From a virus (taxonomy: Duplodnaviria; Heunggongvirae; Uroviricota; Caudoviricetes), in the IMG/VR virus record IMGVR_UViG_2703718836_000001: 22,661 bases of DNA, one strand, 5' to 3'. A program made the translations under genes and the position numbers. Under the pieces are notes generated by a model. The model searched no databases. It had not been told where the DNA came from and saw nothing but the letters and a program-made list of their open reading frames with translations. Positions 5,306 through 22,269 of the stretch are shown here, one piece after another. Each line of letters opens with the position of its first letter. Positions within the stretch are counted from its first letter, which is position 1.

Positions 5306-5365
5306 ATAAACTCCGTACATAAAAAATCCCACCGGAGTGGGACTCATTAACAGATTAATTTTTCA

Positions 5366-7612: not shown

Positions 7613-7968
7613 TACTGGTAATCCCCTTCTTCACCGTGGAACTCAAGATCGACCGTGCCTTCTTCGGCATTATGGTTCGCTTCGCCGTGCAGCCAGGCAG
7701 ACGACAGTACATAGACCTGACCGTTCGCCAGCTCGGCAGTGATGGTCATCTCATCAGACGAGGTGATTTTGCTCACCGGAAAATTCTTCGGCACCTTGAA
7801 GGTCCCTTTAACATAGGGCGCACGGTGAGTTTCCTTGCGGTCCACTGAACCGTCCAGGCCGATGATGTCATCATTGACCGTCCTGTTCATGGGCACCTCA
7901 ATGCCGCCGGTCAGCGATAGCTGCTGACCGTCAATTTTGAAATAACAGGTTCCCCCGATACGGGCCAT
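7612..7968 (-). CDS. Tail tube protein (Mu gp40-like)
   Basis: 118 aa directly downstream of the sheath gene. Confidence 0.8.
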   Translation of the reverse strand: MARIGGTCYFKIDGQQLSLTGGIEVPMNRTVNDDIIGLDGSVDRKETHRAPYVKGTFKVPKNFPVSKITSSDEMTITAELANGQVYVLSSAWLHGEANHNAEEGTVDLEFHGEEGDYQ

Positions 7969-9464
7969 TATGCAGACTCCTCTGAATACTGAAGACGGAA
8001 CTGGTTAACCACGGCAAAGACACGCAACTGGTTAACATAGTCAGGCGGGAACAGCGTGTTCAGGCGGTTCGGATCGCTGGCATCACGCTCCACAACCAGG
8101 TACTGCTTAAACAGTTCGTAGTTTTCCACGATCCCCGCACGCTCAAGCTGACGGTAGGTTGCCAGCAGTTCCCCTTTGATCACCGCCGGGGTGACAATCG
8201 CCTGACCGGGACCAAAGCGGGTACCGTCACTGGCAAGCTTGTGACGCCCGTACTTACTGGTAATGACGGATTTCAGTTTGCGCAGTACATACGCGCTGGT
8301 ATGCAGTGTCTCACTGTCGAGGTAGCTGTTATCCGCAACCCCGTAAGCGTTTTTCCTGTACGTGGTGACATCACGCTGAATGCGCAGTACCCCGCTTTCG
8401 ACATACGCCGTTGCCACGCCATGAGACAGCAGGGTCTGTTGCTCGGTCATCGTGAACCGTTTCCCCTTCGGCGCAGGCAGCATACCCACCAGCTCACCGG
8501 TCTGCGTGGGACGTGCCGGATCGTTGCGAATAAACACCGCTGCGCGGGCGGTACGGCTTGCCGCCAGCTCGTCGGCAGGCGTCTGGGTCTCTTTTTCGTA
8601 CCCCGCCAGGGTAATGTGCTGCTGGTTAAACTGGTCACCTGCGGTCACCAGTTCTGACAGCGTGCCGGTCTTTGCCGTATACACATGACCATACAGCTGA
8701 CGCGCATAGCTCCAGCGACCGCTGGTATCGTTCATCTCGGTCACCAGCGTGTTAACGGAGGCCGTGTCGTTGAACGGCAGGCCGATATAATCAAACGGCT
8801 CATCCGCCATTGCAGCCACCGCGCCGGTGAGAACAGGAGAGCCCGTTCCGGCGGTCCCCGTCGCCACGGCAATCTGTACGCCCGCTGGCAGCACTTCGCC
8901 CCCACCAAAGCCGTAGTAATTGAGGCTGACAGGAATTTCATTCCCGCAAAGCCCCTTATGACGCGCGGTCAGTGTGACCACGCCTGCCGAAGATGAAGCC
9001 GTAAACGGCAGGGCCGGAACGGCATTGATGGCATCTTTGATACTGCTGGCAATCGTCGTGACGTTATCGCCGTTGGTCACCGGAGCCTGCACGCGGGTAC
9101 GTCCCACATAGACATTCACCGTGCCGCTTTCGGTTGCTTCCCCGGTCACCGTCAGCGTAACCGTTGCCGCCGCGCCTGTGGCTTCCGGAACGGCAATCAC
9201 ATACAGCTCGCCAAACGGGTCGGTCTGGCGATAAGCCTCGACCATACGCGCCAGCTGACTTCCCGCACCACAAATCTGGCGTGCATAGTCTGCCGACGGC
9301 ATCAGTACCAGACTGTTGGCAACAATCTCTGCACCGTTATTGGCATGACCAATCAGCAGCGATGCTCCGCTGTCCTGTGCAGTATTCGCCGCCTGGTTAT
9401 CCATTTCCGCATAAAACAGCGGAACCAGCGTATTCGACGGAATGGTGTTAAAGCTTATCGTCAT
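7968..9464 (-). CDS. Contractile tail sheath protein (Mu L / gp39-like)
   Basis: 498 aa; N-terminus MTISFNTIPSNTLVPLFYAEMD; size and position typical for a myovirus sheath. Confidence 0.9.
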   Translation of the reverse strand: MTISFNTIPSNTLVPLFYAEMDNQAANTAQDSGASLLIGHANNGAEIVANSLVLMPSADYARQICGAGSQLARMVEAYRQTDPFGELYVIAVPEATGAAATVTLTVTGEATESGTVNVYVGRTRVQAPVTNGDNVTTIASSIKDAINAVPALPFTASSSAGVVTLTARHKGLCGNEIPVSLNYYGFGGGEVLPAGVQIAVATGTAGTGSPVLTGAVAAMADEPFDYIGLPFNDTASVNTLVTEMNDTSGRWSYARQLYGHVYTAKTGTLSELVTAGDQFNQQHITLAGYEKETQTPADELAASRTARAAVFIRNDPARPTQTGELVGMLPAPKGKRFTMTEQQTLLSHGVATAYVESGVLRIQRDVTTYRKNAYGVADNSYLDSETLHTSAYVLRKLKSVITSKYGRHKLASDGTRFGPGQAIVTPAVIKGELLATYRQLERAGIVENYELFKQYLVVERDASDPNRLNTLFPPDYVNQLRVFAVVNQFRLQYSEESA

Positions 9465-9618
9465 CGGTGTTCACCTTTTTATTCACGCGCCGGATATCAC
9501 CCGCTGCTTCACGGCGCAGCCAGTAGTTGTTCTCGTCAACATTTCGCCCTTCGGCGGGCAAAAGGTCGCCGCGGGCAGGATCAGGAACTGACCGCCCTTT
9601 AACAGGTTTGACAAACAT
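9448..9618 (-). CDS. Small protein upstream of sheath (Mu gp38 / DUF2635-like), absent from the ORF track
   Basis: Hand-translated 56-aa ORF MFVKPVKGRSVPDPARGDLLPAEGRNVDENNYWLRREAAGDIRRVNKKVNTDDDKL; ATG at 9618 with GAGGA RBS 5 nt upstream; its 3' end overlaps the sheath start. Confidence 0.45.
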   Translation of the reverse strand: MFVKPVKGRSVPDPARGDLLPAEGRNVDENNYWLRREAAGDIRRVNKKVNTDDDKL

Positions 9619-9626
9619 GAGGATCC

Positions 9627-10187
9627 TCAGAAAGGAAGGGTTATTTCGGTGTGATGTTCGATATCGCCGTCAGGCCCGTTACCGGGCTCGAGATAATCAA
9701 CATCAATCGCCAGCGTTTGCAGTTCATCCAGACTGTTCAGATCATCCTGCTGGCGGGTATCGTCTTCAGTCAGCTCGCTGATGACCGAAAAATCGAACTG
9801 ATAAATCAGCTCATGACGATTCAGATCCAGCAGCGTGCCGCCGTCATAGGTAATCGGGTTACCGCACGCTTCCGGGTTCCAGCCCAGCAGGGCCTTAAAG
9901 AGCATCTGCCGGACATCGTCCACCACATCATACGAGGCAAACTGACCGCGCTCATCACGTCCGTTACTCAGTATGACAACCACGGAGAAGCCCTCTTTCA
10001 GCTCCTGCCAGTAGTCGGTCTGGCTTTTGTTTTCTCCCGGAGAATCATCCCCCGGTACCACATACGCCGCCGGGAGTCTCAGCTTTCCGACCTCCGGCAG
10101 ATTTTTGAACTGTGCCGCGCCTGCCACCCGGTTTTCAAAATACGGGCAGCGGGCACGCAGCGCAGCAATAACAGGCGTCAGTTTCAT
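9627..10187 (-). CDS. Mu gp37-like virion protein (DUF1834)
   Basis: 186 aa; N-terminus MKLTPVIAALRARCPYFENRVAGAAQF resembles the family; sits between head-tail joining genes and the sheath. Confidence 0.55.
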   Translation of the reverse strand: MKLTPVIAALRARCPYFENRVAGAAQFKNLPEVGKLRLPAAYVVPGDDSPGENKSQTDYWQELKEGFSVVVILSNGRDERGQFASYDVVDDVRQMLFKALLGWNPEACGNPITYDGGTLLDLNRHELIYQFDFSVISELTEDDTRQQDDLNSLDELQTLAIDVDYLEPGNGPDGDIEHHTEITLPF

Positions 10188-10690
10188 CTGTGTCGTCGCT
10201 CCGGCTTCAGTGATTTACGCAATTCCCGCGCCAGAAAATAGCGTGTCCAGCTGCGGTTCTTTTCAAGCGTTTCCACCATGAAGTTATTACGTGGAGCCAG
10301 TCGCCAGCCGCTGCCACCGGATGCACCACGATGATGGCTGCGACGACGCTTTGCCCCTCGCCTCACGCCATAGAACAAAAAAGCCGGATAAAAATCACCG
10401 GTGATACGGCGGTTTCCCTCTCCATTACGCTGGTTAGGGGCTATACGTGCCATAAAACCAGGGCGATGTTTACTGGCTCTGGGTACCATGTAACCAATCG
10501 AACGAGCCAGGCGTCCGGTCTGATAACCGGGGTTTTCACCCGGTGCCGACCGCGCACGGCGCATCACCAGCCGACGGGCATCACGCATATGACGCTGCCC
10601 AATCGTGACAAACGCCCGCCGGACACGGGCGCGGTTAAAGCGCATCTCGGCGGGCTGCTGAACATCAACGTGAAAAAAGGGAGTCGCCAT
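10184..10690 (-). CDS. Head-tail joining / tail completion protein (HK97 gp10-like)
   Basis: 168 aa, Arg-rich, contains the TGRLARSI motif characteristic of the gp10-like family. Confidence 0.55.
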   Translation of the reverse strand: MATPFFHVDVQQPAEMRFNRARVRRAFVTIGQRHMRDARRLVMRRARSAPGENPGYQTGRLARSIGYMVPRASKHRPGFMARIAPNQRNGEGNRRITGDFYPAFLFYGVRRGAKRRRSHHRGASGGSGWRLAPRNNFMVETLEKNRSWTRYFLARELRKSLKPERRHR

Positions 10691-11075
10691 TGCTGCCTCC
10701 GTGACTCTGCCTACATTCGCCCAGCTCCGTACACTCCAGCAGCAGAAAGCGCCGCGCCCCGTTCAGATCGCGCTGACGTTTCACCCGGTACACACTGTCA
10801 CCGCAGACCACCTCATAATCAGCGGTGATCCCCCGGCGGTAACGAATGGTGATGTAATGGGTGATGGCGTCCCCGGTCTGCGCGGTTTCCTGCCAGGTGG
10901 TGGCACTGGTCTGGATAACCTTCGCCCATGTCCGGAACGTAACCGGGTATTGAGGCTCCACGCTAAAGTTATCCGCGGGCATATCCACCCGCAGGCGGAT
11001 CAGGACGCGTTTATTCAGTTCACCGGGGTCCGGCAGAATGTAGGTTGCGCTGGTCTGCGCCTGACGAATTTTCAT
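10665..11075 (-). CDS. Head-tail adaptor / head closure protein (HK97 gp7-like)
   Basis: 136 aa; position after the gp6-like connector; pattern ...THYITIRYRRGI... typical of the family. Confidence 0.6.
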   Translation of the reverse strand: MKIRQAQTSATYILPDPGELNKRVLIRLRVDMPADNFSVEPQYPVTFRTWAKVIQTSATTWQETAQTGDAITHYITIRYRRGITADYEVVCGDSVYRVKRQRDLNGARRFLLLECTELGECRQSHGGSNGDSLFSR

Positions 11076-11395
11076 TGCGGAAAGTACCTGTACGGGCCGA
11101 CAAGCCAGCCAAAACTCTGCGGCATGTCGAGTTTCTCCACTTCCGTAACCGACGAGCGGTTTTCGTAAAAATGGCTGATAAGCATCAGCATCCCCAGACG
11201 AATATCATCCGGCAGGTGCAGTCCGTCCGGGTCGCTGTCCGGAATGGTTTCATCCGGTGCATAGAGCTTCCGGTTCAGATACGTTTCCGTCCGCTTTTGC
11301 GCCGCACAGGCCAGCAGTTGCAGATGGCGGTCATCAGCATCGAAATCCTCATCCAGCCGGAGTTGGGCTTTAATCTCTTCCATTGTCAGAAGCAT
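11072..11395 (-). CDS. Head-tail connector protein (gp6-like)
   Basis: 107 aa; N-terminal MEEIKAQLRLDEDFDADDRHLQLL pattern of gp6-like connectors. Confidence 0.65.
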   Translation of the reverse strand: MLLTMEEIKAQLRLDEDFDADDRHLQLLACAAQKRTETYLNRKLYAPDETIPDSDPDGLHLPDDIRLGMLMLISHFYENRSSVTEVEKLDMPQSFGWLVGPYRYFPQ

Positions 11396-11397
11396 AC

Positions 11398-11598
11398 TCA
11401 GCCCTCTTTACTGGTCGTGGCTTTTTTCTCTTTTGTCGCTTTACTGCTTTTTGCACTGGTTCCGCGCTCTGCTAACCCGGCCTGAAGTGCAATCTCCTGC
11501 ACCCGGGCAGGAAGCGCCCCGTCGTCATACTCACCGGCCCGAATGACCTCAACACGCATACCGTCCGGTGACCATTTCAGATCTTGTTTCAGGATCAT
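11398..11598 (-). CDS. Hypothetical small protein with Lys/Ser/Thr-rich C-terminal tail
   Basis: 66-aa ORF with ATG start between the major capsid and connector genes; no family recognised. Confidence 0.4.
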   Translation of the reverse strand: MILKQDLKWSPDGMRVEVIRAGEYDDGALPARVQEIALQAGLAERGTSAKSSKATKEKKATTSKEG

Positions 11599-11612
11599 GA
11601 TTCTTCACCCGT

Positions 11613-11636
11613 CAGAACAGGGGGCGCGGTTCCGCG
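11613..11636 (-). terminator. GC-rich stem-loop downstream of the major capsid gene (attenuator or stabilising hairpin)
   Basis: Perfect inverted repeat GGGGCGCG / CGCGCCCC around a 4-nt loop, 12 nt after the capsid stop; no clear U-tract, so probably not a full terminator. Confidence 0.35.
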
Positions 11637-11647
11637 CCCCTGAGTGA

Positions 11648-12853
11648 TTACGCCGCTGCAATCTTCAGCAGTTTGATGGCCTGCGAATCGACCAGCATCC
11701 CGCCGGTGCGCTTGGTGGTATAAAAACCGACAAACGGTTTATTGGTGTACGGGTCACGCAGAATGCGGGTGCCGATACGGTCAACGATGGTGTAACCCCG
11801 TTTGAAGTTACCAAATGCAATGGCTTTCGCATCAGCGGCGATATCCGGCATCTGTTCGTTTTCAGCGATACCGTAACCCGCCAGAGAGGACGGCTGCCCC
11901 AGTTCCAGCCCCGGACGCCACAGATAGTTACCCTCGGTGTCTTTCAGCAGACGGATGGCAAACAGGCTGTTGTTGTTCATCATGAACTTCGCGCCAGTGC
12001 GGTGTGCCTTACGCAGCGTGTAAATCAGTTTGATAATGGCGTCTGCGGTCACCGCGGTCGCTTCGCCGGATACAATATGCTGAAGTTTGCCGAACGCCCG
12101 GACCTTGTCGGTTTCATCAGTGGATTCATACGCCAGGAACCCTTTCGGCTTCTTGGTGCCATCGCCTGAGGTAAAGGCAATTTCTTCCTGTTCGGCAAAT
12201 TCGGTTGCCAGCTCGCTGTTGATCCAGGCCTCCACGTTGAAGAAGGCATCGTCCAGCATTTTCTGGGTAGCCTGCGGGTTGCCGTAGATTTCCCCCATGA
12301 GAGGTTCAATCAGCTCCAGTCTGGAGGTGGCAGTCTGGGATCGCGTATCCGTTTCCCCCACCCATCCGGAAGCCGTACCGCCCAGATTCACCAGTTTTTT
12401 GTAGTCGGAACCGCCAACGGTGATCACCGTGGCTTCCTGACGCATCACCACTTCATCTTTCAGCAGGTTAAGAATGTTGCGATCCAGTGCTTCCGGCACG
12501 GCGTAGCCACCGTCTTCATCGGTACCCACCTGCAATGCCTTACGCTCCAGATCGCGCAGACCGTCTTCACGGCCTTTACGCAGGAAGCCCACAAACGCCT
12601 CTTTATGCTCGGTGGCCAGTTTATTTTGCGCTCCACCTGCCGGACGTTTCAGCTCAAGCAGCTCTTTTTCAAGGTCGCTTTTGAGATTTTCCAGCTCGCT
12701 GAGTTTCCCGTTCAGGGTTTCCACCTGCCCGGCAAGCTTGCCTTTTTCCTGCTCAATCGCATCAACGCGCTTGTCGTTCTTTGCTTTGAAGTCGTCAAAC
12801 TTCTGCTGCAGCTCCTGCGCGACCTGTTCGACATCTTTAATATCAACCGCCAT
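11648..12853 (-). CDS. Major capsid protein, HK97 family, with N-terminal coiled-coil delta/scaffold domain
   Basis: 401 aa; charged heptad-rich first ~100 aa (KFDDFKAKNDKRVDAIEQEKGKLAGQVETLNGKLSELENLKSDLEKELLELK) then capsid domain; follows the prohead protease. Confidence 0.9.
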   Translation of the reverse strand: MAVDIKDVEQVAQELQQKFDDFKAKNDKRVDAIEQEKGKLAGQVETLNGKLSELENLKSDLEKELLELKRPAGGAQNKLATEHKEAFVGFLRKGREDGLRDLERKALQVGTDEDGGYAVPEALDRNILNLLKDEVVMRQEATVITVGGSDYKKLVNLGGTASGWVGETDTRSQTATSRLELIEPLMGEIYGNPQATQKMLDDAFFNVEAWINSELATEFAEQEEIAFTSGDGTKKPKGFLAYESTDETDKVRAFGKLQHIVSGEATAVTADAIIKLIYTLRKAHRTGAKFMMNNNSLFAIRLLKDTEGNYLWRPGLELGQPSSLAGYGIAENEQMPDIAADAKAIAFGNFKRGYTIVDRIGTRILRDPYTNKPFVGFYTTKRTGGMLVDSQAIKLLKIAAA

Positions 12854-12867
12854 CGTATTTCTCCTGA

Positions 12868-13554
12868 TTAGAAGTTCAGATTTTTCAGTGCATTCAGTGC
12901 AGTGCCCACATCCTCAGCGTCGCGCAGGGACAGTGCGCCATAGCCCCCGGCCATGAATGCTTTGGCCTGGGTACGGGAGAGTCCGACATCACGCAGGACT
13001 CTTTCGATTTTTTTTTGTTCGGGGATTTCCCCGCGGGCCAGTGCGTTCTTGACGTCGCTGATCCGCGCCTCGTCGTTAGACGGGAACGTCACCAGGCTGA
13101 CTTCCCAGAGGTCGATTTCTTTCAGCAGAAAGGCTTCTTTGCTCCGGTCGTATTCCCAGTCTTTCAGGACGTACCCAATAGAAAGGCCGGTTAACGAACC
13201 GGCCTTCATGTGTGCATGTGCGCGTTTTGCGAGGGGATCATCATCAATAAGCAACCGTCCCCTGACGTAAAGCCCGACATCGTCTTCCTTCATTTCGGTG
13301 TAAACACCGATGGGCTCATCCATGCGGTGCTGCCAGAGCAGCGCAGGTAACGCTTTTCTGTCACTCCACGCCCGCAGGGAAGCAGCAAATGCCCCGGACA
13401 TCACCACATCATCGTGGCTGTCCTTTACACCAAAGACGGAGCCATACCCTTCAAACTCACCGGAGTCACTGACAGATTTCAGACTCAGCGGTACATCAAG
13501 ACGTTGTTTCGTCTGCATTGGCGTTATCCTTCTGCTTACCGGCTTTACTGCCAT
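12868..13554 (-). CDS. Prohead protease (HK97 family, S78-like)
   Basis: 228 aa; position between portal and capsid; N-terminal region typical of HK97 prohead proteases. The real start may be the internal Met at about 13518. Confidence 0.85.
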   Translation of the reverse strand: MAVKPVSRRITPMQTKQRLDVPLSLKSVSDSGEFEGYGSVFGVKDSHDDVVMSGAFAASLRAWSDRKALPALLWQHRMDEPIGVYTEMKEDDVGLYVRGRLLIDDDPLAKRAHAHMKAGSLTGLSIGYVLKDWEYDRSKEAFLLKEIDLWEVSLVTFPSNDEARISDVKNALARGEIPEQKKIERVLRDVGLSRTQAKAFMAGGYGALSLRDAEDVGTALNALKNLNF

Positions 13555-14737
13555 CGGAGGGTTTCGTGGTCATGTTCATCGGTGTGAGATAGACATCACC
13601 ACCGGGACGCGGATTCATATCTTCCAGGTCGCGGCAGTCATTGGGAGAGTAAATTCCCCAGTTGATCCCGGTGGCGTAGGCTTCAAAACGGGACTTCATA
13701 TCCCCGCGCAGTAACGCCCCGGCGTTAAATTTGGCGTAATAAACGCCCTGCTTACTTTTTCGTACCAGTCCGGTGTTGATCCGCTGTTCAATGCGGGTCA
13801 GATACGGCACCAGTGAATAGTTGATAAATCCCAGCCCCAGCTCTTCGATATTGTTGAAGGTGGCGCGATCGGTGTTCTGCACCATGTGCAACGGCACCCG
13901 GAACAGACGACAGATTTCTTCAAGCTGAAACTTGCGGGTTTCCAGGAACTGGCTGTCCTCGGCGTTCAGCGCCATCGACTTCCAGTCCAGCCCCATCTCA
14001 AGGATCATCGGGCGGTGAGCATTGCCAAGCCCGGTGTGACGCTCCTCAAAATCTTTCTTCAGGCGCTCATAAGCCTGATCTGACAGCGTCTGCTCTGTAC
14101 GCAACACACCCGACGTCACCGCACCATTGCTGAACAGTCTGGCCCCGTGCTCTTCGGTCGCTGCCGCCAGAGATATTGCCTCGCGGGCATAGGCGATGGG
14201 ATTCAGCCCCACCAGTCCGTCCAGCGTCAGCGTGCGCACATGCCAGATATCCTCCTGGCTCAGTACATCCGTGGAGCCATCCGGGAATGTGACCTGATAG
14301 ACCGGCTCCCAGCTACTGTTAAGCTTCGGTACCACACAGCCGGGATCGACGGGCAGCAGTTCAGCCACTTCGCCAAATGCTTTCACTTTGTAGGCGTAAA
14401 AGTTTCCCCGCAGGCACAGACAGGTGACCACCAGCTCCCAGAACTCCTGCGGCGTCATATAGCCATTGGGATGCGTGGAGATCAGCTTATGCAGACGTTC
14501 GCCGGTGGCTCTCTGCTTCAGGCTGCCGTTCAGGTGATACAGGTTGCAGGGCAACATCCCGACCGACTCCGCCAGCACCCTGACACAGGAAAAAACCGCC
14601 GTCAGTCGCATGGCCCGCTGGCTGCTGATCTGCTTTCCGGTATAGGTGTCGTAGGACAACCCGATAGCATCCGCCAGCTCTGCTGGCGTGGTCACCGGTG
14701 CGTCACTTTTTCGTTGAAATAATCCCGAAAAGAACAC
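13496..14737 (-). CDS. Portal protein (HK97 family)
   Basis: 413 aa; position after TerL; apparent GTG start overlapping the stop of the upstream small ORF. Confidence 0.85.
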   Translation of the reverse strand: MFFSGLFQRKSDAPVTTPAELADAIGLSYDTYTGKQISSQRAMRLTAVFSCVRVLAESVGMLPCNLYHLNGSLKQRATGERLHKLISTHPNGYMTPQEFWELVVTCLCLRGNFYAYKVKAFGEVAELLPVDPGCVVPKLNSSWEPVYQVTFPDGSTDVLSQEDIWHVRTLTLDGLVGLNPIAYAREAISLAAATEEHGARLFSNGAVTSGVLRTEQTLSDQAYERLKKDFEERHTGLGNAHRPMILEMGLDWKSMALNAEDSQFLETRKFQLEEICRLFRVPLHMVQNTDRATFNNIEELGLGFINYSLVPYLTRIEQRINTGLVRKSKQGVYYAKFNAGALLRGDMKSRFEAYATGINWGIYSPNDCRDLEDMNPRPGGDVYLTPMNMTTKPSDGSKAGKQKDNANADETTS

Positions 14738-14919
14738 TATTTACCTCCGCCGACAGACGGCTGTGTACGGTCGAGATATCGCGCCACCAGCCACGACCAG
14801 AACAGGCACAGCCCCCCGGCAACAATAAAACCCGCCGGGGGATAAATCAGCCAGGCTCCATACGCCAGCAAAAGCGCACCCAGCACGCCCACCAGTGGCG
14901 CGAGAATTATCAGAAACAT
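14737..14919 (-). CDS. Small hydrophobic (predicted 2-TM) membrane protein
   Basis: 60 aa [60 protein letters not shown]; ATG at 14919 with GAGG RBS 5 nt upstream; packed between TerL stop and portal start. Confidence 0.5.
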
Positions 14920-14930
14920 AATGACCTCGG

Positions 14931-16664
14931 TTAAAGCGAGCGGATCCCATAGGACTCAATGTGGTCAGACAGCGTGTCTTCTTTCTCGTACAGCATGGCT
15001 CTGCCAACCGCCATAATCAGCGCAACTGCACCATCGATTTTGTTTTCCGCCTGCTCTTTGACGGGCTTCACCACATCATCGTTACCCGGAATGGTTTTGC
15101 CGACCACGTTGCCGATACACCAGGTCATGATGGGATTGCCATCATGATGAAAGCGCCCCGATTCAATTGCCGCTTCCAGCTCTTTCATCGGGTCGGACAT
15201 GTTGGTGTAGTTCTGAATGATAGTGATGGGGTTCAGGTCTTCATCAGCAAGGTCATGTGACAACCCGGTCGCCCCGAAGGGGTCGATGGGTGACTCACTG
15301 ACCGGGCTGATTTTGTTCGCCGCTTTGGCCTCCTCGAGGATGTAGCGATAATCCACCTCCGCACCATCGGTAACGGTCAGAACGCCCATTTCCACCCATT
15401 TCTGAAAGCGTTCGGCTGTCCGTCGATCTTCATTTTTCTCGACGCTGTACACCGTGTCATACGGTACCCAGAAACGCGGGGCCACACTGTAGTAATGCGT
15501 TTTACCGTCAATCTCGCGGGTATAAAGTCGCGCCATGCTGTTCATATCCAGCTTACGCGCCAGGTCAAAGGCCAGAATGCACGGCTGCCCCTCGAACTGC
15601 TCAAGGGTCAGTGATTTATCCTCGCAGCTCTGCCAGCTCACCAGGTTGAAATACGCCGAACGCGCCGACACCCAGATATTGAGGTGTTTTGTTTTAAAGA
15701 CGTTTGCCAGACGGGCGTTATTTTTCGCACGCTGCTGCTGACTTAACAAAAATTCGCGATAAACCGACACGCCAATATTTGGATTGGCTTTTTCCAGCAC
15801 CTGCGGGTCGGTCCAGTCGTCACCTTCATCAACGGTATAGATGATCCCGAACAGTTCATCATTAGGCACCGAGCCGTTGAGCATCTCGATTACTTCCCGC
15901 CGTTTGTCGTAGCACGGCCCCTCAATGTTGTACCCGGCGGTAGTGATAGCCCACATCAGTGGCTGACGTCGCGCCCCCATCCCGGTAAGCATCGTGGTGT
16001 AAAGCGCATCTGTGGCGTGCTCGTGATATTCATCCACCACCGCACAGTGGGGTGATGAACCATCACCGGGGTTACCGATCAGCGGTTCAAAACGCGCACC
16101 ATCCTCCGGACGGTTCATGTTTGAGGCGTTAACCTCAATCCCGAACGCTTCCGTCAGCATGGGTGTGCGTTTACACATCAGTCTTGCCGGACGAAAGACT
16201 TCCCATGCCTGTTTCTCCGTCGTGGCACCGGAATACACTTCCGCGCCGAACTCGTTATCACAGGCAAAACAATACAGGGCGACACCGGCAGAGATTGCCG
16301 ATTTGCCGTTCTTACGGGGGATTTCGGTATACACCTCCCGGAAGCGGCGCAGCCGGGAGCCTTTATTGACCCAGCCAAACGCGCAGCAGATCACAAAGAG
16401 CTGCCACGGCTCCAGCGTGATGGGCATCCTCTTAAATGCCCACTCACCCTTGGTGTGCGGCAACAGCTGAATAAATTTGGCGGCCCGTTCAGCCAGGTCC
16501 TTGTCGAAGCGGTAACGAAACGACTTACTTTTTTCCGCCATCAGGTCATCAAGATGGCGCTGGCAGGCCTGAATCACAAACTGGCAGGCCACAATCTTTC
16601 CGCGCACGACATCCCGGGCATACTGATTGGCAGCATTTACGTTGGGGTAAGATTTCCGGCTCAT
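14931..16664 (-). CDS. Terminase large subunit
   Basis: 577 aa; Walker A-like IPRKNGKSA; ATGA overlap with the TerS stop. Confidence 0.9.
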
Positions 16665-17155
16665 GATTCGATAATTTTCAGAAACGGGTTAGTGGCTTTC
16701 TTCTTCCCCGCAAGGCCAATCAGACGCTGGCGGCTGCTGGGGTCGAGTCCGAGCATTGCCCCCGTACTGCTCATCTCGGACTCCTGTTCTTTTTTGGCGG
16801 TCAGCTCCGGATTTTTGACCATACCGCCCATTGCACCGGTGATGGTGTTGCCCTGTCTGGCAATATTTTTCACGGCACGTCGCCAGAACTCGTAGGCCAC
16901 GCACCACCGCTCAAGCACCGCGAGGTCAGTCACGCACAGCAGGCCCTGACCGCAGAGTTCTTTAGTTGTCAGTTGCCACATGATCGTAGCGAGAGGGAGA
17001 TCTTCTTCAGCGAACCACTCCGGTGGCTCAACACCTTTGATGGGCGTAAAAACAGGTTCATCTTTATTCAGGGCTCGCTTGCCGGGGTTTCCGGCCAGCG
17101 CCTTGCGCGCCGTTGGCTTGGGGCGACGCCCGGAACGCCCCGCCGTTCCAGCCAT
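16661..17155 (-). CDS. Terminase small subunit (P27 family)
   Basis: N-terminal [29 protein letters not shown] motif; ORF track start at 17164 is GTG, while the ATG at 17155 has an AGGAG RBS about 10 nt upstream. Confidence 0.8.
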
Positions 17156-17164
17156 ATGCGGCAC

Positions 17165-17280
17165 TCCTGGTTAAATTTCATTTTTCGCGGGTATAAAAAA
17201 ACGATGGGGCGGGCAGTCCGGAAGACGTCAGGTCACAGAGATTTGACCCGCCCCTCCCCTCAGACAGTTGAGAGTTATTA
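17165..17280. other. Candidate cos / packaging recognition region
   Basis: Non-coding gap between HNH and TerS, the position of cos in HK97-like phages; contains GGGGCGGG (17204-17211) and its reverse complement CCCGCCCC (about 17248-17255). Confidence 0.3.
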
Positions 17281-17631
17281 TCACTTAAGCCGTTCACGGG
17301 CCGTCTTCGCCTTATGGCACGGCCAGCACAGACTCTGCAGATTACTGTCGGCATCAGTGCCGCCATGTGCTTTAGGGATGATGTGGTCAACGGTTTTCGC
17401 TTCACGCGCCACACCAGCACGCAGACATAACTGACAAAGGCCTTTGTCACGTTGCAGCACACGCACGCGAATAACATCCCACTTAGAACCATAACCGCGC
17501 TGATGACGGGATTGTCCTGGCTTGTATTGCTTCCAGCCCTCGCTTTTGTGGCTTTCGCAGTAGCCTGACGGGTCTGTGGTGGTATGGCGGCAGCCACGAA
17601 CGCGGCAGGCTTTTGGGGTTCGTGGGGGCAT
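17281..17631 (-). CDS. HNH endonuclease (terminase-associated, HK97 gp74-like)
   Basis: 116 aa with Cys/His motifs CRVRGC...C..H, DHIIPKAHGG, N...LCWPCH; directly upstream of cos and TerS. Confidence 0.85.
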   Translation of the reverse strand: MPPRTPKACRVRGCRHTTTDPSGYCESHKSEGWKQYKPGQSRHQRGYGSKWDVIRVRVLQRDKGLCQLCLRAGVAREAKTVDHIIPKAHGGTDADSNLQSLCWPCHKAKTARERLK

Positions 17632-17644
17632 TGGACACTATCGT

Positions 17645-17672
17645 TGCTTATGTTTATAAAAAAAGCCCTGCT
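17645..17672 (-). terminator. Intrinsic terminator after the small acidic ORF
   Basis: Stem GCCCTGC / GCAGGGC (17655-17672) with loop TTAC, followed on the minus strand by a 7-nt U-tract (plus A-run 17648-17654). Confidence 0.5.
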
Positions 17673-17710
17673 TACGCAGGGCATAAAAACTCAATATTGA
17701 TACTATGAAT

Positions 17711-17941
17711 CTATTCCAAATCCCAACGTGGAATATTTATTATCTTACCAGGAGTTAAGGAAAATTTGGCTTTCTTCAATATCTCAACATTAGCATCATC
17801 AGGAATCACTAAGAAGTACGAATAGTGCATTTCTCCAGAATTCCCATGATTCTCCTGAATATCATCTTCGCTAACTCCCGACGCTTCAAGCTCATCAACT
17901 GTGAGTCCTAAATAATCAGCTAGCTTTTGTATATCAATCAT
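17711..17941 (-). CDS. Hypothetical small acidic protein (orphan, AT-rich)
   Basis: 76 aa, about 15 Asp/Glu; ATG at 17941 with GAGGTG RBS 4 nt upstream; followed by its own terminator. Confidence 0.5.
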   Translation of the reverse strand: MIDIQKLADYLGLTVDELEASGVSEDDIQENHGNSGEMHYSYFLVIPDDANVEILKKAKFSLTPGKIINIPRWDLE

Positions 17942-18240
17942 TAATCACCTCACATATCAACGATGAGGCATCATCATCACACACTCTAGCAAAAGCTTCA
18001 ACTTATTGTTATTATTAAAATAATTCTATACAAATTACATCTAATGTATATCCTATGATACGATAGATGCGAATATTAATGACAAACAACCATCGTATTT
18101 CTCTGAAAAATGGCAAGTATCACTCATTATTCCCCATGCATCTATGTACTCTGTTCATGGTCAAGCCATAACTATATTTAATGCAAGAATACGGAAAGTT
18201 AAACAAATAAACGTTGATACACTAACATTCCACAAACTAG

Positions 18241-18534
18241 TTATACTAATGAAGTAGGCAATTCTTCCTCTGAAATTCCCAATACTCTCCTATCGGCCCG
18301 CAATTTTGCTATAGCGCACACTTCACTATAAGATGGTGCGGAGTTCTCAGGATAAAGTACATACTCAAAATGCGGCGGAGGATTGAATATTAAAACTGAA
18401 TACCCAGCTTCTTGAAGGATATTTTGGACGATTGAATAATAAGGTCTACGCTCATCAAACCAATAACATCCATTCCTTTCTATTGACACGATTGCTTTTT
18501 TTGCGTGCTTCTTATAAACCCATGCCTTATCCAT
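18241..18534 (-). CDS. Hypothetical protein (orphan, AT-rich)
   Basis: 97-aa ORF; weak RBS; two CTACGTA motifs just upstream; no family recognised. Confidence 0.4.
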   Translation of the reverse strand: MDKAWVYKKHAKKAIVSIERNGCYWFDERRPYYSIVQNILQEAGYSVLIFNPPPHFEYVLYPENSAPSYSEVCAIAKLRADRRVLGISEEELPTSLV

Positions 18535-18682
18535 ATCCTGTCAAAAATCTCTCTACGTAATTGAACAATAACACTACGTAGTAGTCATACACCAGAATAT
18601 CTAACATATCAATCCAGCAACATTTAATTATTTTAACTTAATATGAAAAAGTCTTCAGTGATTATAATTTCACACCTATATA

Positions 18683-18973
18683 TCAATTCAGTAACTTTTC
18701 AGAGCCTGTGGCCAGTCTTTGGACACGCTGTTGTTGGACAATAGCTCGAATATGAGACTTGTCCGTATTACATTGCCCTAATGCAGATAACAAGCTCGCA
18801 TTTAAGTTGAGACTTGCACCATACGTCAGAGGGTCTGGTATGAGCGGTATAGGTGTTTCAGAAATCAAACTAGTTGGTAGTGGTGTAACCGGAGTGCTCA
18901 CGTAAACTGTCCGCGTACTTCCGCAACCGATCAGCAGCGGCAGCAGGCACAGGACGTGAAGCACAATCATCAT
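18683..18973 (-). CDS. Rz1-like o-spanin (outer-membrane lipoprotein)
   Basis: From the internal Met of ORF 18683..19141: MMIVLHVLCLLPLLIGCGS... (hydrophobic signal plus lipobox-like LIGC), Pro-rich mature part; starts inside the Rz gene in another frame. Exact start uncertain (a TTG two codons upstream is possible). Confidence 0.55.
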   Translation of the reverse strand: MMIVLHVLCLLPLLIGCGSTRTVYVSTPVTPLPTSLISETPIPLIPDPLTYGASLNLNASLLSALGQCNTDKSHIRAIVQQQRVQRLATGSEKLLN

Positions 18974-19250
18974 CCGCAATAGCCATTTTGATATCTTCCT
19001 GGGTTCTCTGTGACTCCAGTGCGATCTGCTGTTTTGCATGCTGGTTAGCCTCCAGAACTGTATTGAAGATTTGTAGTGATTGCAGGACGTTATTGGTAAT
19101 GGCTGTTGCTGATTCAGCATTTCGTACAGCCTCATCAGCACGTTTCTTTTCGTGCTGATATTTGCTGTAGTAGTGGTTGGCAGACCAGATGAAAGAACCG
19201 ATGACAGTAAAGATGAATGCAGAGATAGCCAGCTTATAGCTCAACTTCAT
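18870..19250 (-). CDS. Rz-like i-spanin
   Basis: 126 aa; N-terminal TM segment LAISAFIFTVIGSFIW then helical periplasmic domain; immediately downstream of the endolysin. Confidence 0.7.
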   Translation of the reverse strand: MKLSYKLAISAFIFTVIGSFIWSANHYYSKYQHEKKRADEAVRNAESATAITNNVLQSLQIFNTVLEANQHAKQQIALESQRTQEDIKMAIADDDCASRPVPAAAADRLRKYADSLREHSGYTTTN

Positions 19251-19710
19251 TTACCACCCCACCAGCCTCTTTAAACCGGGAAATCAGGTCACCGATTTTA
19301 TGTTCATACTGACCGTAACCTGCACCAGGTAACGACGCCCAGATATTGCTGCAACGATCGATAGCCTGACGAATATCGCCGCGATCAATCATCGGTAAAG
19401 CGCCACGCTCTTTAATCTGCTGCAATGCCACAGCATCCTGGTTTTTGGGAGAGAAGTCTTTCAGAGCAAGCTGCTTACGGTAGGCATCCCACCAGCGTGA
19501 AAGAAGCTGATAACGTCCGGCGGCTGTTGATTTGAGTTTGGGGTTTAGCGTGACAAGTTTGCGAGGGTGATCAGAGTAATCAGTAAACAGTTCACCGCCA
19601 ACAATAACATCATAACCGTGATTACGTGTCGGTTGTCGCCCGTTATCCGTTCCTTCTGACCATGCCACCATATCGAGGAAAGCTTTACGCTGGGAATTTA
19701 GTACCTGCAT
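19234..19710 (-). CDS. R: Endolysin, lambda R-like lytic transglycosylase
   Basis: 158 aa; QRKAFLDM.AWSEGTDNGRQ.TRNHGYDVIVGGELFTDYSDHPRKLVTLNPKLKST matches lambda R almost residue for residue as I recall it; AAGGAG RBS 6 nt upstream of the ATG. Confidence 0.9.
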   Translation of the reverse strand: MQVLNSQRKAFLDMVAWSEGTDNGRQPTRNHGYDVIVGGELFTDYSDHPRKLVTLNPKLKSTAAGRYQLLSRWWDAYRKQLALKDFSPKNQDAVALQQIKERGALPMIDRGDIRQAIDRCSNIWASLPGAGYGQYEHKIGDLISRFKEAGGVVNEVEL

Positions 19711-19713
19711 AAA

Positions 19714-20049
19714 TTACTCCTTAGAGCCACTAAACTTATTACCGATTACTCGCATTGCAGCTCCACGAATGGCATCAACACCGATCAGCCCAACGCCACC
19801 ACCAATGGCAACAGAAAGCGATTTAGGCCATCCGACATACTCAAGCGCGGATGCAAAAGTCAGCGTCAGAGCACCACAGAGCAAAATCTCGAGCGTTTTT
19901 CGCTTCCAGCCACCACCTCCGCCAAAATAGGCGATACGCAAACCAGCCATAACGATCGACATAATCACTGCCCCCAGCGGGGTGTCTCCACGCCACCAGC
20001 TCTGGAACAACTCCAGCCAGTCCGGCCAAGTATTTGGGTTATGAGGCAT
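19714..20049 (-). CDS. Holin
   Basis: 111 aa with about three hydrophobic segments and a charged C-terminus; directly upstream of the endolysin. Confidence 0.7.
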   Translation of the reverse strand: MPHNPNTWPDWLELFQSWWRGDTPLGAVIMSIVMAGLRIAYFGGGGGWKRKTLEILLCGALTLTFASALEYVGWPKSLSVAIGGGVGLIGVDAIRGAAMRVIGNKFSGSKE

Positions 20050-20093
20050 TTGTAGTTATCTCTCACCTGCGATTATTTGCGGGTGCTGTGTTG

Positions 20094-20122
20094 GAAATAA
20101 AAAGGCCACCCGAAGGCAGCCT
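20094..20122 (-). terminator. Intrinsic terminator after the ATPase moron
   Basis: Minus-strand RNA AGGCUGCC-UUCG-GGUGGCCU (8-bp stem with two G-U wobbles, UUCG tetraloop) then UUUUUAUUU, 23 nt after the ATPase stop. The wobble pairs become C-A on the plus strand, so it is strand-specific. Confidence 0.55.
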
Positions 20123-20145
20123 GATTTAATTATTCACATTAATCG

Positions 20146-21537
20146 TCACTTAATAGGATTTGGTTTTATGTCGTCAAGCCAGTCGTTATCACCTCTTAGC
20201 TTGGCTACTCGTCCTTCAACATTAGTTAACGGTTTATAAGCAGAGTATTTGCCTATAGCCCTAGCAGAATGCTCTCCAGCAACACGATAATTTTGGAAGT
20301 CCAACTCAAGTCCATGCTGCTCCGCTCTCATTCGAATATAGCCACGAAGCATGTTTTCTCTAAATCGAAACCAAGATGGACGATTCCCTAAAGCAGGGAT
20401 GATGATGCATCCAAATGTCGGTTTCTTCAATGCATTGAACTTTCGCTCAAACGTGGATTTATCTAAAGGTGTTACATCAAGCGATTTGCAAATTTTAACG
20501 TACGATTCTGATATATGAGTCTTATGTCTGGTCAAATCAGCCATATCGGACATAGCCCAAAGAATATGCTTATATGACTCATCACGTCCCTCTGTTGCAT
20601 CCGTGTAACTTTGCCTTAAAGTTTCCGAGACTGAATCAATTGCATCATTTAACCCTTTAATGAAAAGGTTGTAGTCAACAGAGCTGTATTCACGTATTGA
20701 GCTTTGACATGTTAAAAGGATTTTTTCACAAATAAGATGAATGTAGTTCGGGAACCCGTCACTAAGACCCGCAATTTTATAGCGGACAGAATCATCGACA
20801 GTCAGGCCAAACTCATCGAAAGCATTATCAATTATTTGAAAACGACCATTCCATGGTAAACTATCGAGATGTACCTGATGTATTTGTCGCTCACTTGATT
20901 TATGCCCTCCGATTAAAGTAACGAGAGAATCACCAATCCCCGTAAAAATTAATTTTACTTCACACGCCTGATCACCAAGTTGCTTAATGAGTGATCCAAA
21001 CTTTTGTCGTTCTTCATCAGAGTCAATTTGGTCAAACTCATCGATAACTATATAAGGAATCTTTGAGTGAACTTTAGTTAAAAATTGCAACGCCCGAACG
21101 GCTGCAGAAACTGAGTCAATTTTCAGTTCTGGATAATTATATTTTTGATTTTGACCAGCATTGATACCACCAATTCCAGCCACATTTAAGCCAAAGCTCC
21201 ATCCCTGTGTATCGATTTTCTTATCCTGAGGTGTGCCTCGCAAAATAATGTCATTCATGACACTTGAAAAAGTGGATTCTTTCTCGCAGCCAACCAAAAT
21301 AGGTTCAGCATCTTCCTGCAGCTTAAAAGCAACAGTTTGCGCTAAGGATGTCTTTCCTACTCCGCGATCACCATAAATGAAAGCATGCCGACCTGTAGCA
21401 TAAAGCGCCAATTCGAGATCGGTTACATGTTTTTCACGTCCAAATAACAGTTCCATAGAAACAACTGGACCCGTTGGTCGCAAAACTTTATGCAGTTTAT
21501 GCATAAAGTCTCGCAAAGAAAGACCTCCACAGAGCAT
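20146..21537 (-). CDS. P-loop NTPase, AAA+/ATPase_2 (Arch_ATPase)-like N-terminal domain with uncharacterised C-terminal half
   Basis: 463 aa; Walker A GDRGVGKTS preceded by LLFGREKHV, Walker B YIVIDEFDQ, sensor-1-like LIFTG. AGGAGA RBS 6 nt upstream of the ATG. AT-rich (one hand-counted 60-nt stretch about 37% GC, against about 65% on a sampled stretch of the sheath gene). Confidence 0.8.
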   Translation of the reverse strand: MLCGGLSLRDFMHKLHKVLRPTGPVVSMELLFGREKHVTDLELALYATGRHAFIYGDRGVGKTSLAQTVAFKLQEDAEPILVGCEKESTFSSVMNDIILRGTPQDKKIDTQGWSFGLNVAGIGGINAGQNQKYNYPELKIDSVSAAVRALQFLTKVHSKIPYIVIDEFDQIDSDEERQKFGSLIKQLGDQACEVKLIFTGIGDSLVTLIGGHKSSERQIHQVHLDSLPWNGRFQIIDNAFDEFGLTVDDSVRYKIAGLSDGFPNYIHLICEKILLTCQSSIREYSSVDYNLFIKGLNDAIDSVSETLRQSYTDATEGRDESYKHILWAMSDMADLTRHKTHISESYVKICKSLDVTPLDKSTFERKFNALKKPTFGCIIIPALGNRPSWFRFRENMLRGYIRMRAEQHGLELDFQNYRVAGEHSARAIGKYSAYKPLTNVEGRVAKLRGDNDWLDDIKPNPIK

Positions 21538-21559
21538 TTTTATTCTCCTGCATTTTTTT

Positions 21560-21597
21560 CGAAAACTATAACATCATTCTTTTTGGCAAGCCTTTCC
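21560..21597 (-). promoter_or_regulatory. Possible extended -10 promoter for the ATPase moron
   Basis: Minus-strand TGtTATAGT (-10 hexamer at plus 21565-21570) about 28 nt upstream of the ATPase ATG; no good -35. Weak, by-eye call. Confidence 0.25.
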
Positions 21598-21628
21598 TAA
21601 ACGCAAAAACCCGCACAATGGCGGGTTC
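21598..21628 (-). terminator. Intrinsic terminator downstream of Q (tR'-like)
   Basis: Stem AACCCGC / GCGGGTT (21608-21627), 6-nt loop, then UUUUUGCGUUU on the minus strand; lies about 50-80 nt after the Q-like stop, where lambdoid phages place pR'/qut/tR'. Confidence 0.5.
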
Positions 21629-21676
21629 TTACTATTATGTTGCTCAGTTCGCTTTTCGTCCCGAGCTTATCACAAT
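21629..21676 (-). promoter_or_regulatory. Candidate late promoter (pR'-like) / Q-utilisation region
   Basis: Immediately downstream of the Q-like gene; contains a CATAAT -10-like hexamer and TTGTGA overlapping the Q stop; elements not confidently assigned. Confidence 0.3.
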
Positions 21677-22255
21677 TCAAGCACTTTCTTGCTCACTTTG
21701 CAATTTAAATCTGTCGCTATTTGTGCCAAACGCATCACATAGTGGAGCGTACAGGAGCGATTCGGCCAAACTTATCCATGTGTCAACTCGGCGGCGACAG
21801 GTAATGAATGCCCAGTCAGGATGTTTAATATGAAGCTCATTGGCCATTTGCAACTTGCTCTTACGCAGACGATACCGGCCAACAATCACACCGTATAGAG
21901 AACGGTAATCATTATTCATCAGCACCGAGGCGATCACACCGTCAATCTTCAGGCCTTCATCGTCCGAGCAAAACGCCAGACTACTTTTGTTTTTACTGTT
22001 GAGTATTTCGCGCAAATAAGCTTCGAGCTCTGGTTTCGTAATGCCTGACTTTTTCATACGGCGCAGCGCATCGTTGATTGCAGTTTTGGTAATTTTGCTG
22101 GATACAAGCAGTTGGTTAAACATGTTACCGCTAGTCCCTCCACTGATATAAGACCAACGCCCCCACATGCGGAGCTTCCCCTGAACCCAGATACTTTCCA
22201 GAGTACGAAGACGAACCATTTCACCCGTTTTGCCAATTTCAGAAGGATTAATCAT
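21677..22255 (-). CDS. Putative late-gene antiterminator (Q-like)
   Basis: 192 aa; position between the nin-region protein and the late promoter/lysis cassette; LRMWGRW resembles the ERWGAW motif of 21-type Q proteins. Family assignment is tentative. Confidence 0.45.
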   Translation of the reverse strand: MINPSEIGKTGEMVRLRTLESIWVQGKLRMWGRWSYISGGTSGNMFNQLLVSSKITKTAINDALRRMKKSGITKPELEAYLREILNSKNKSSLAFCSDDEGLKIDGVIASVLMNNDYRSLYGVIVGRYRLRKSKLQMANELHIKHPDWAFITCRRRVDTWISLAESLLYAPLCDAFGTNSDRFKLQSEQESA

Positions 22256-22269
22256 TTAGAGTTCTCCAC

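Follow-up and report, generated by a model that had tools for sequence, protein, structure and literature searches.

In the Juhala/Hendrix concept, morons are stretches of deviant GC content that bring their own promoter and terminator and are expressed from the prophage (PMC3594210). Phage phi80 carries a lysogen-expressed immune gene, Tai, together with a small, late-expressed counter-defence gene, Ati, just upstream of its packaging module (PMC11364771), and Shigella phage SfIV has a low-GC moron (39% against 50% GC) between Q and the lysis cassette (PMC3851460). Here we analyse an AT-rich island at positions 17632–18682 of a 22,661-nt tailed-phage sequence, IMG/VR record IMGVR_UViG_2703718836_000001 (this whole stretch is called the window below). 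The island lies between the Rz1 spanin gene and an HNH endonuclease gene and contains two small open reading frames (ORFs) of 97 and 76 amino acids (aa), ORF97 and ORF76. Our preferred reading, to which we assign a probability of about 0.75, is that the island consists of two single-gene moron cassettes placed in tandem in a polymorphic slot bounded by the spanin genes and the HNH/cos/terminase module, and that both are horizontally acquired, dispensable cargo. Taken by itself, the part of this reading that concerns stacked cargo cassettes of horizontal origin is very probable; that the products are conflict-related binding proteins, split between lysogen-expressed and late-expressed modes, is put forward at even odds. 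Judged at the level of sequence, our comparisons show island DNA that is foreign, dispensable, rare and seated in a hotspot, and two ORFs that are real genes.

The island resembles the morons of HK97, HK022 and other lambdoid phages in being extra DNA found in some relatives at a fixed position between conserved modules. It also shares with them a deviant GC content, one gene per cassette, a downstream terminator, promoter-like sequence upstream, and cassettes that have spread between unrelated phage backbones (PMC3594210). It differs from them in stacking two cassettes, probably served by one common terminator, and its promoter and prophage expression are putative. Lambda bor is dispensable cargo in the same slot, after the end of the lysis cassette and before packaging (Rz/Rz1 to cos/Nu1). 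However, bor lies on the strand opposite to the late genes and encodes a secreted lipoprotein, whereas the island ORFs are on the late strand and encode soluble, acidic-to-neutral products that have no lipobox. The original prediction that neither ORF is bor-like is borne out: no similarity to the Bor family was found in Pfam, and the N-termini of the two products (MIDIQKLADY and MDKAWVYKKH) show neither a hydrophobic signal nor a lipobox. Both proteins are predicted from their sequences to be soluble, without signal peptide or transmembrane segment (grand average of hydropathy −0.28 and −0.31). Scans of both ORFs against Pfam, NCBIfam and PADLOC returned only DUF3979 (E = 0.17) and RktP (E = 0.084), which we took as noise. 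We infer that the products are not surface-modifying lysogenic-conversion factors like Bor.

The Tai/Ati genes of phi80 are likewise accessory genes upstream of a lambdoid packaging module, and AtiEcA is small and lies on the Q-dependent late transcript (PMC11364771). Unlike phi80, the island has no divergent ORF of 60 aa or more and no divergent immune gene, and TaiEcA, at 26 kDa, is far larger than the product of ORF97 or ORF76; the likeness is positional only. The Q–lysis moron of SfIV belongs to the same SfV/SfIV-like phage family and shares low GC content, flanking transcription signals and genes without assigned function (PMC3851460). It occupies the Q–holin slot rather than the Rz1–HNH slot, however, carries different genes, and is associated with an IS1 transposase. 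Because this low-GC moron has already been described, cargo slots in the SfV-like family are known in kind, and the island is a rare two-cassette cargo allele with uncharacterised proteins, of a kind already known.

The GC content of 17632–18682 is 34.4%, whereas the window outside it has 53.8%. Among 1051-nt windows this interval ranks lowest in GC (minimum 0.341 at 17648; mean 0.529, standard deviation 0.059), about 3.2 standard deviations under the mean. The 60-nt windows of lowest GC (starts 17991–18001) have 16.7%, in agreement with an earlier hand count of about 17%. GC at third codon positions (GC3) is 0.32 in both ORF97 and ORF76 versus 0.50–0.65 in the HNH, Rz and large terminase (TerL) genes, so that the island differs in composition from the surrounding phage genes, as a moron should. 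The original prediction had described about 1 kb of AT-rich DNA between Rz1 and HNH that carries two small same-strand ORFs about 300 nt apart and ends in a clean intrinsic terminator, and each of these features was recovered. Every phage gene in this part of the window is encoded on the minus strand, so the "late strand" of that prediction is the window minus strand, and both island ORFs are indeed on it. Read in the direction of transcription, the island begins with a 148-nt leader of 27.7% GC (18535–18682), which includes a perfect TATAAT at 18666–18661 with no acceptable −35 sequence; the promoter scan gave no site in this leader. ORF97 follows at 18241–18534 (soluble product, pI 6.7; annotated by PGAP as hypothetical protein WP_059242600.1). 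The 299-nt gap between the ORFs (17942–18240) is made up of a 200-nt spacer (18041–18240), with no ORF longer than 37 aa and no terminator, and the conserved upstream region of the ORF76 cassette (17942–18040). ORF76 itself (17711–17941) encodes an acidic, soluble protein and is followed by the rho-independent terminator (17655–17682), all on the minus strand.

To define the units within the island, we compared it with the loci that carry ORF76 homologues. DNA identity of about 80% was detected by BLAST and was confined to 18040–17656, a block comprising about 100 nt of upstream sequence, ORF76 and the terminator, with sharp edges at both ends of the alignment; homology to L005–L008 starts near 18040. 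The loci are lambda-like phage contigs in which Rz/Rz1 genes of the DUF2514 type immediately precede the cassette and the small terminase (TerS) gene follows it. TerS is Nu1, accompanied by gpA, in L005, L008 and L031, while L032 has a different TerS, a gpA-like TerL, and a different holin and endolysin. The ORF76 cassette has thus spread over at least three phage backbones, always between the spanins and TerS, and at the lambda-like loci it is always in late orientation and never accompanied by ORF97. The ORF76 homologue is the sole gene of the slot in L008 and L032, and has other neighbours in L005 and L031. When all six-frame ORFs of the fetched loci were searched with phmmer, no ORF76 homologue was found at any ORF97-family locus, nor the reverse. 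Outside the eight Escherichia coli islands described below, each family was therefore found without the other at every locus, with none of the conserved adjacency expected of a two-gene module. Because each family occurs without the other, and because DNA homology ends between the genes, the island is resolved into two cassettes in tandem. On these alignments it is a composite of two separately mobile units, which goes beyond the view taken in the original prediction.

These data also bear on the possibility that ORF97 and ORF76 form one two-gene system, of a toxin–antitoxin-like or sensor–effector type. Such a system would fit with the two genes always occurring together in the eight E. coli islands, with a terminator that is probably common to both, and with the small acidic neighbours of some ORF97 relatives (87 aa, pI 4.1, in L018; 90 aa, pI 5.0, in L014). 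Those neighbours are not homologous to ORF76, however, and the gap of nearly 300 nt, the end of lambda-like homology within it and the solitary or differently accompanied ORF76 homologues are all at odds with a joint function. The two-gene system was rejected on co-occurrence, and we regard it as very improbable.

The slot that holds the two cassettes is itself variable. Its flanks were found in 1,238 of 5,426 complete E. coli genomes, and the island in only eight, where it is always complete, always in the same slot and about 99% identical. Neither the near nor the distant mode of blastn matched island DNA to any of 50,697 phage records and 72,556 plasmid records, and tblastn of the ORF76 and ORF97 proteins against the phage and plasmid collections was negative as well. 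The slot is empty in SfV, in vB_EcoM-720R4 and in many E. coli prophages (the HNH–lysC gap is 26 bp in L002), and in L003, L004 and many other genomes it contains different cargo. This includes an opposite-strand YodC-family gene, a 169-aa hypothetical protein, an S1/trypsin-like peptidase, a GrlR-family regulator, a DUF6236 protein and other hypothetical proteins, with at least 15 length classes among about 100 rows inspected. The Rz1–HNH junction is a polymorphic cargo hotspot, and like a moron the island is present or absent among close relatives at the same map position. The earlier identification of a known cargo position is thus upheld, and the same genes are not shared by all related phages. 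We also considered the island as a cos or packaging site. This was ruled out, as the empty-slot relatives retain an intact HNH gene, a GC-rich HNH–TerS interval and TerS. That cos lies between HNH and TerS follows from the linear genome records of SfV and SfIV, both of which stop shortly past the HNH gene.

Alignment to related prophages, suggested earlier as a way to define the borders, located both of them. BLAST homology with prophages L002, L003 and L004 ends at 17631/17632, exactly at the HNH start codon, and returns at 18759–18766, 76 nt inside the Rz1/LysC reading frame. The variable cargo segment of the lysis-to-packaging junction is therefore 17633–18758 (1,126 bp, 35.2% GC). The AT-rich block at 17632–18682 is real, as predicted, but does not coincide with the exchanged segment, one border of which lies inside the 3′ end of Rz1; the break at 18759 means that the exchangeable DNA takes in the last 25 or so LysC codons (18683–18758). 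The Rz1/LysC outer-membrane spanin (o-spanin) of the window is a 98-aa protein of the overlapped type, whose gene runs 187 nt past the Rz stop codon; empty-slot relatives have a 59-aa version. Since about 25 C-terminal spanin residues are encoded by exchangeable DNA, exchange of cargo alters the spanin C-terminus. A 20-nt direct repeat was noticed in the same region, between 18625–18606 and the 3′ end of Rz1 at 18699–18680 (17 of 20 positions identical). The copy at 18680–18699 overlaps the Rz1/LysC stop codon, and the inner copy has a relic-like ending, "...M L L D stop" versus the real "...K L L N stop". The repeat suggests that recombination brought in the ORF97 cassette joined to the 3′ terminus of a different Rz1 gene; in DNA so rich in AT, such a match may also have arisen by chance. 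The ORF97 leader had no homologue in any collection searched, and the spacer none beyond the eight E. coli islands in the phage, plasmid, E. coli genome and related-locus searches.

ORF76 matched phrog_31861, a family of unassigned function, with E = 9.6e-36, and among 5.8 billion proteins is represented by no more than four clusters at 90% identity. To judge from a dN/dS of 0.14–0.22 at dS 0.2–0.8 against the lambda-like homologues, the protein is under purifying selection. It is hydrophilic and strongly acidic, with 15 Asp and Glu against 6 Lys and Arg residues (net charge −9, pI 4.4). An AlphaFold2 (AF2) model was confident (pLDDT 84.5) and consists of two short N-terminal helices on a three-stranded sheet. 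No fold neighbour was found for this model, and a profile search of PDB sequences gave only designed helical repeat proteins over 18–21 residues, which we judged to be compositional matches.

The leader of ORF76 contains a TAGAAT box (18028–18023) that, together with the next 25 nt, is almost invariant across five loci. Set against synonymous divergence of 0.6–0.8 in the ORF, this near-invariance argues for a functional regulatory leader. A promoter scan matched TATACA-16-TAGAAT (18050–18023) in front of ORF76. A second candidate, found by eye, consists of TTGAAG (18001–17996), a 17-nt spacer and TGtGATGAT (−10 at 17978–17973), and is conserved in L005 as TTGATG/TGtGATTAT. A good Shine–Dalgarno sequence, GAGG (17951–17948), precedes the ATG by 6 nt; support is weak for a CCUC/GAGG hairpin that would sequester it (z = −1.1, one compensatory pair in three sequences). 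An inverted repeat, ATTATT-TT-AATAAT (18024–18011), overlaps the TAGAAT box; this repeat and the CCUC/GAGG pairing are both conserved in the lambda-like copies, with statistical support for neither. The sole Rfam match over the island was sR11 (17915–17978), sub-threshold at E = 0.33 and taken as a chance match to a snoRNA.

At the downstream end of the cassette, the terminator has a 7-bp GC stem with a GUAA loop followed by U7, and ends 24 nt before the HNH start codon. In DNA the stem-loop (17682–17665) reads GCCCTGC GTAA GCAGGGC and is followed by TTTTTTT. Its minimum free energy is −15.5 kcal/mol (z = −3.8), and none of 200 shuffled sequences folded as well. As no T-run follows the stem on the opposite strand, termination is expected on the late strand only. 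In L005, L008 and L032 the ORF76 homologues are followed by the same conserved hairpin. The ORF76 cassette thus has its own terminator, as morons do, and ORF97 has none of its own.

ORF97 belongs to a rare family. A word-index search of the 5.8 billion proteins found only its own cluster of 10 members. When 1.84 billion representatives were scanned in full with HMMER, 11 relatives of 82–106 aa emerged (E from 2e-31 to 6e-4), and a profile search added more. The family is one of proteins of 93–106 aa, with homologues of equal length down to about 30% identity. The family alignment (A3) has conserved residues G22, W25, G44, P54, E57, V59, A76 and R79, and the motifs PP.[WF]E.V and, at the C-terminus, R....E.G.....LP. 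Homology searching thus indicates that ORF97 is a member of a real protein family, although none of 13 members scanned had a match in Pfam.

Three tests, only partly independent of one another, connect this family with PA2723 of Pseudomonas aeruginosa (PDB 6TCB). When PDB sequences were searched with the A3 profile (hmmsearch), 6tcb_A was matched marginally (E = 0.045; profile positions 8–95 against chain positions 6–92). The same chain was the top Foldseek match, among 350,542 chains, of an ORF97 model (E = 7.7e-3, TM score 0.61, 95 columns), the model being a single-sequence AF2 prediction of low confidence (pLDDT 61). In hhalign, A3 was matched to the Pseudomonas paraeruginosa homologue of PA2723 with 90% probability (E = 1.5e-6, 88 columns). 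PA2723 and ORF97 are similar in length (94 versus 97 aa) and match in profile over their full length, including a C-terminal R..LRE.G..E.LP motif; on the other side, identity to ORF97 is only about 23–26%, and the P. paraeruginosa homologue is chromosomal and not in a phage. A distant relationship of ORF97 to PA2723 is therefore marginal but consistent. The next Foldseek matches of the same low-confidence model were R3H domains (SPAG7, Jag/KhpB and Smubp-2; E = 0.017–1.7), and the predicted beta-alpha-beta-beta-alpha core fits R3H topology. Assignment of ORF97 as an R3H domain was rejected: Pfam R3H went unmatched in the 13 members, and Arg 30 is mostly conserved without a His four residues on. 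The R3H topology, seen in a predicted model, is a lead and not a classification. No relevant paper came to light in literature searches on PA2723, 6TCB, the WP accessions or the phrog number. In P. paraeruginosa ATCC 9027 (L021 7567–8273) the chromosomal PA2723 homologue lies next to a DUF6348 gene and overlaps by 4 nt an upstream gene of the GFA (glutathione-dependent formaldehyde-activating-like) family, which suggests an operon context for PA2723 not described before.

The family data bear on a further alternative, that the island is decaying AT-rich recombination debris with non-functional ORFs, the "pseudogene debris" outcome allowed for in the original prediction. The extreme rarity of the island, a 200-nt spacer without homologue, the relic-like copy of the Rz1 3′ end, the poor ribosome-binding site and nonsynonymous-biased handful of substitutions in ORF97, and a tolerated IS3 insertion (the last items are detailed below) would all suit decay. 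Decay would not, however, leave the selective constraint and confidently modelled fold of ORF76, or the full-length distant homologues, conserved motifs and structural relative of ORF97. Both ORFs are moreover intact in all eight island genomes. We consider debris a highly improbable explanation.

The genomic contexts of ORF97 relatives were then compared. The Proteus mirabilis homologue is a prophage gene on the opposite strand, with an Rz gene on one side and the small terminase gene on the other; in a metagenomic phage contig a relative lies downstream of an endolysin gene and small lysis-type genes. One relative adjoins a KilA-N gene, one is upstream of an orphan Dam-type methylase, one is downstream of a 1,371-aa HTH protein, and one is in a chromosomal locus. 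About 1.6 kb separates P0018 (51% identical) from a divergently oriented pyocin-S DNase/immunity operon, which has integrase and transposase fragments on its flanks. P0020 and P0017 (L018 and L022) are in same-strand arrays of small genes within an element resembling an integrative and conjugative element (ICE), with TrwB-like, RadC and TIR-domain genes, two genes downstream of an X-Tfe (XVIPCD) type IV secretion system (T4SS) toxin. No recurrent partner family emerged from all-against-all BLAST of the neighbours, and Pfam found no domains in the neighbours included in that search. The common theme of these contexts, as far as gene neighbourhoods reveal it, is mobile-element accessory regions, and three of the contexts are the phage post-lysis slot.

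Proximity to toxin genes raises the question of whether ORF97 is an orphan immunity protein that protects the lysogen against an interbacterial toxin, such as a polymorphic toxin, a T4SS effector or a bacteriocin. The small, soluble product would be suitable, and P0020, P0017 and P0018 all lie near toxin genes. However, the contig that carries P0025 (GCA_041443025.1) has the identical array (genes of 95, 173, 93, 87 and 168 aa) without the X-Tfe gene and its 144-aa neighbour, so that X-Tfe is not the partner of the 93-aa ORF97 relative and the toxin pair is a separate insertion. P0018 is on the strand opposite to the pyocin operon, which has its own Colicin_Pyocin immunity gene. Most family contexts are phage late regions without toxins, no Pfam immunity family was matched, and the window contains no toxin gene downstream of which, and together with which, ORF97 could have been inherited. 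An immunity function is therefore unlikely. Aside from ORF97, comparison of L018 and L022 with the P0025 contig reveals a three-gene block inserted between genes that are otherwise adjacent, consisting of a 222–258-aa gene, the X-Tfe toxin gene and a 144-aa putative immunity gene; on this alignment it is a clean case of toxin–immunity cassette insertion.

In the transcription scheme that follows from the tandem-cassette reading, the absence of a terminator from the spacer means that ORF97 transcripts should continue into ORF76, and the late orientation of both genes, with no terminator between Rz1 and ORF76, implies their co-transcription with the late operon once the prophage is induced. Q-modified RNA polymerase arriving from the lysis genes would transcribe both ORFs and then read through the island terminator into the HNH and terminase genes. 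In the lysogen, the conserved promoter-like sequences in front of ORF76 would in addition allow its expression at a low level. Any transcript begun in the AT-rich leaders, perhaps with ORF97 included, would end at the island terminator short of the packaging genes, as in the classical moron design (PMC3594210). The products would act as small cytoplasmic binding or inhibitor proteins in conflict between phage and host or between phages, ORF76 as an acidic inhibitor-type protein and ORF97 as a PA2723-like alpha/beta protein of R3H-like topology. With Tai/Ati of phi80 as precedent, small soluble proteins encoded at this position most plausibly belong to the defence or counter-defence class.

The main competitor for lysogen expression is that both ORFs are late-phase counter-defence genes, passengers of the Q-dependent transcript only, which neutralise host or prophage immunity during lytic growth in the manner of AtiEcA of phi80. 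Their late orientation with no upstream terminator would be explained, as would the weak promoter evidence and the invariably late orientation of ORF76 homologues at the junction in several backbones. ORF97 relatives in same-strand ICE-like arrays with RadC, TrwB-like genes and an orphan Dam-type methylase are consistent with it too, as is the small size and charge of −9 of the ORF76 product; many phage inhibitor proteins are small and strongly acidic. The phi80 precedent itself (PMC11364771) counts in the same direction. A read-through passenger, however, needs neither a conserved strong terminator nor a leader of about 100 nt with −10-like boxes. The Proteus homologue of ORF97 is oriented opposite to the late genes, which is typical of lysogen-expressed cargo, and no cognate immune gene adjoins the ORFs in the window. 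Purely late expression is, in our estimate, a serious possibility that nevertheless falls well short of even odds.

Several observations weigh against the tandem-moron reading, above all against expression in the lysogen. No convincing sigma-70 promoter could be recognised in the island sequence: the promoter scan gave 2 promoter-like sites where 5.3 were expected from shuffled sequences, and the −35 element of TATACA-16-TAGAAT lies outside the block conserved with lambda-like phages. At ORF97 the AGGA is only 1 nt from the ATG, the upstream TATAAT is an orphan, and no credible promoter was seen. In E. coli, H-NS would be expected to silence DNA as AT-rich as the island. In E. coli PCP06173 (L040, NZ_CM129873.1) an IS3 element has inserted at the equivalent of approximately 18537/18538, 3 nt upstream of the ORF97 start, and splits the AGGA, so that expression of ORF97 in this strain is either dispensable or driven by the IS. 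Relative to strain 2A, ORF97 has four nonsynonymous substitutions and one synonymous substitution, too few to interpret. Finally, PADLOC-DB v2 gave zero families for ORF97 or ORF76 at E ≤ 1, so that a conflict-related function is drawn from position and context alone.

As it stands, the locus is an ordinary moron island with uncharacterised cargo, and it would gain weight should one of the two proteins turn out to be a new defence or anti-defence factor. Each of them may be a new small inhibitor. In its most far-reaching form, which we consider speculative and rather doubtful, the proposal is that ORF76 is a new small acidic inhibitor, directed against defences or competitor phages and tied to the lysis–packaging junction, that ORF97 represents a new PA2723-related mobile-element family that binds nucleic acid or protein in conflict, and that the Rz1–HNH/TerS junction of SfV-like and lambda-like prophages is a hotspot for new defence and counter-defence genes. 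Lysogenic-conversion, defence and counter-defence genes collect in prophage cargo slots; the highly polymorphic Rz1–HNH junction of SfV-like prophages offers a specific locus in which to look for more of them, and the ORF97 family gives the orphan structure 6TCB a phage and mobile-element context.

The surrounding backbone is that of an SfV-like prophage. The prophage of E. coli strain 2A (NZ_CP146939), 97.7% identical to window positions 5200–20109, combines a head of HK97 type with a contractile tail of Mu type. The closest isolated phages are vB_EcoM-720R4, vB_EcoM-689R6, SfIV, SfV and SfII, so the label "SfV/HK97-like" given in the original prediction was correct. In transcription order, all on the minus strand, the genes for the holin (19714–20049), endolysin (19234–19710), Rz (DUF2570 type; 18870–19250) and the Rz1/LysC-type o-spanin (18683–18979; annotated by PGAP as lysC at the equivalent place in L001) precede the island. 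After it come the HNH endonuclease gene, the first of the packaging module (17281–17631; PF01844, E = 5.5e-16; phrog_144), the small terminase gene of the P27 family (16661–17164) and the large terminase gene (14931–16664).

A second cargo slot, separate from the island, lies between the Q antiterminator region and the holin gene (20110–22260), and is also of low GC (0.40; GC3 0.32). In the window it holds an ORF on the minus strand (20146–21537) that encodes a 463-aa P-loop AAA ATPase (AAA_16/AAA_22, ORC/Cdc6-like; phrog_6841, E = 6e-103). Weak matches to STAND and defence ATPases make this protein a candidate single-gene defence ATPase. The corresponding slot of the strain 2A prophage contains a DNA methyltransferase, a small hypothetical protein and a different Q-type antiterminator gene.

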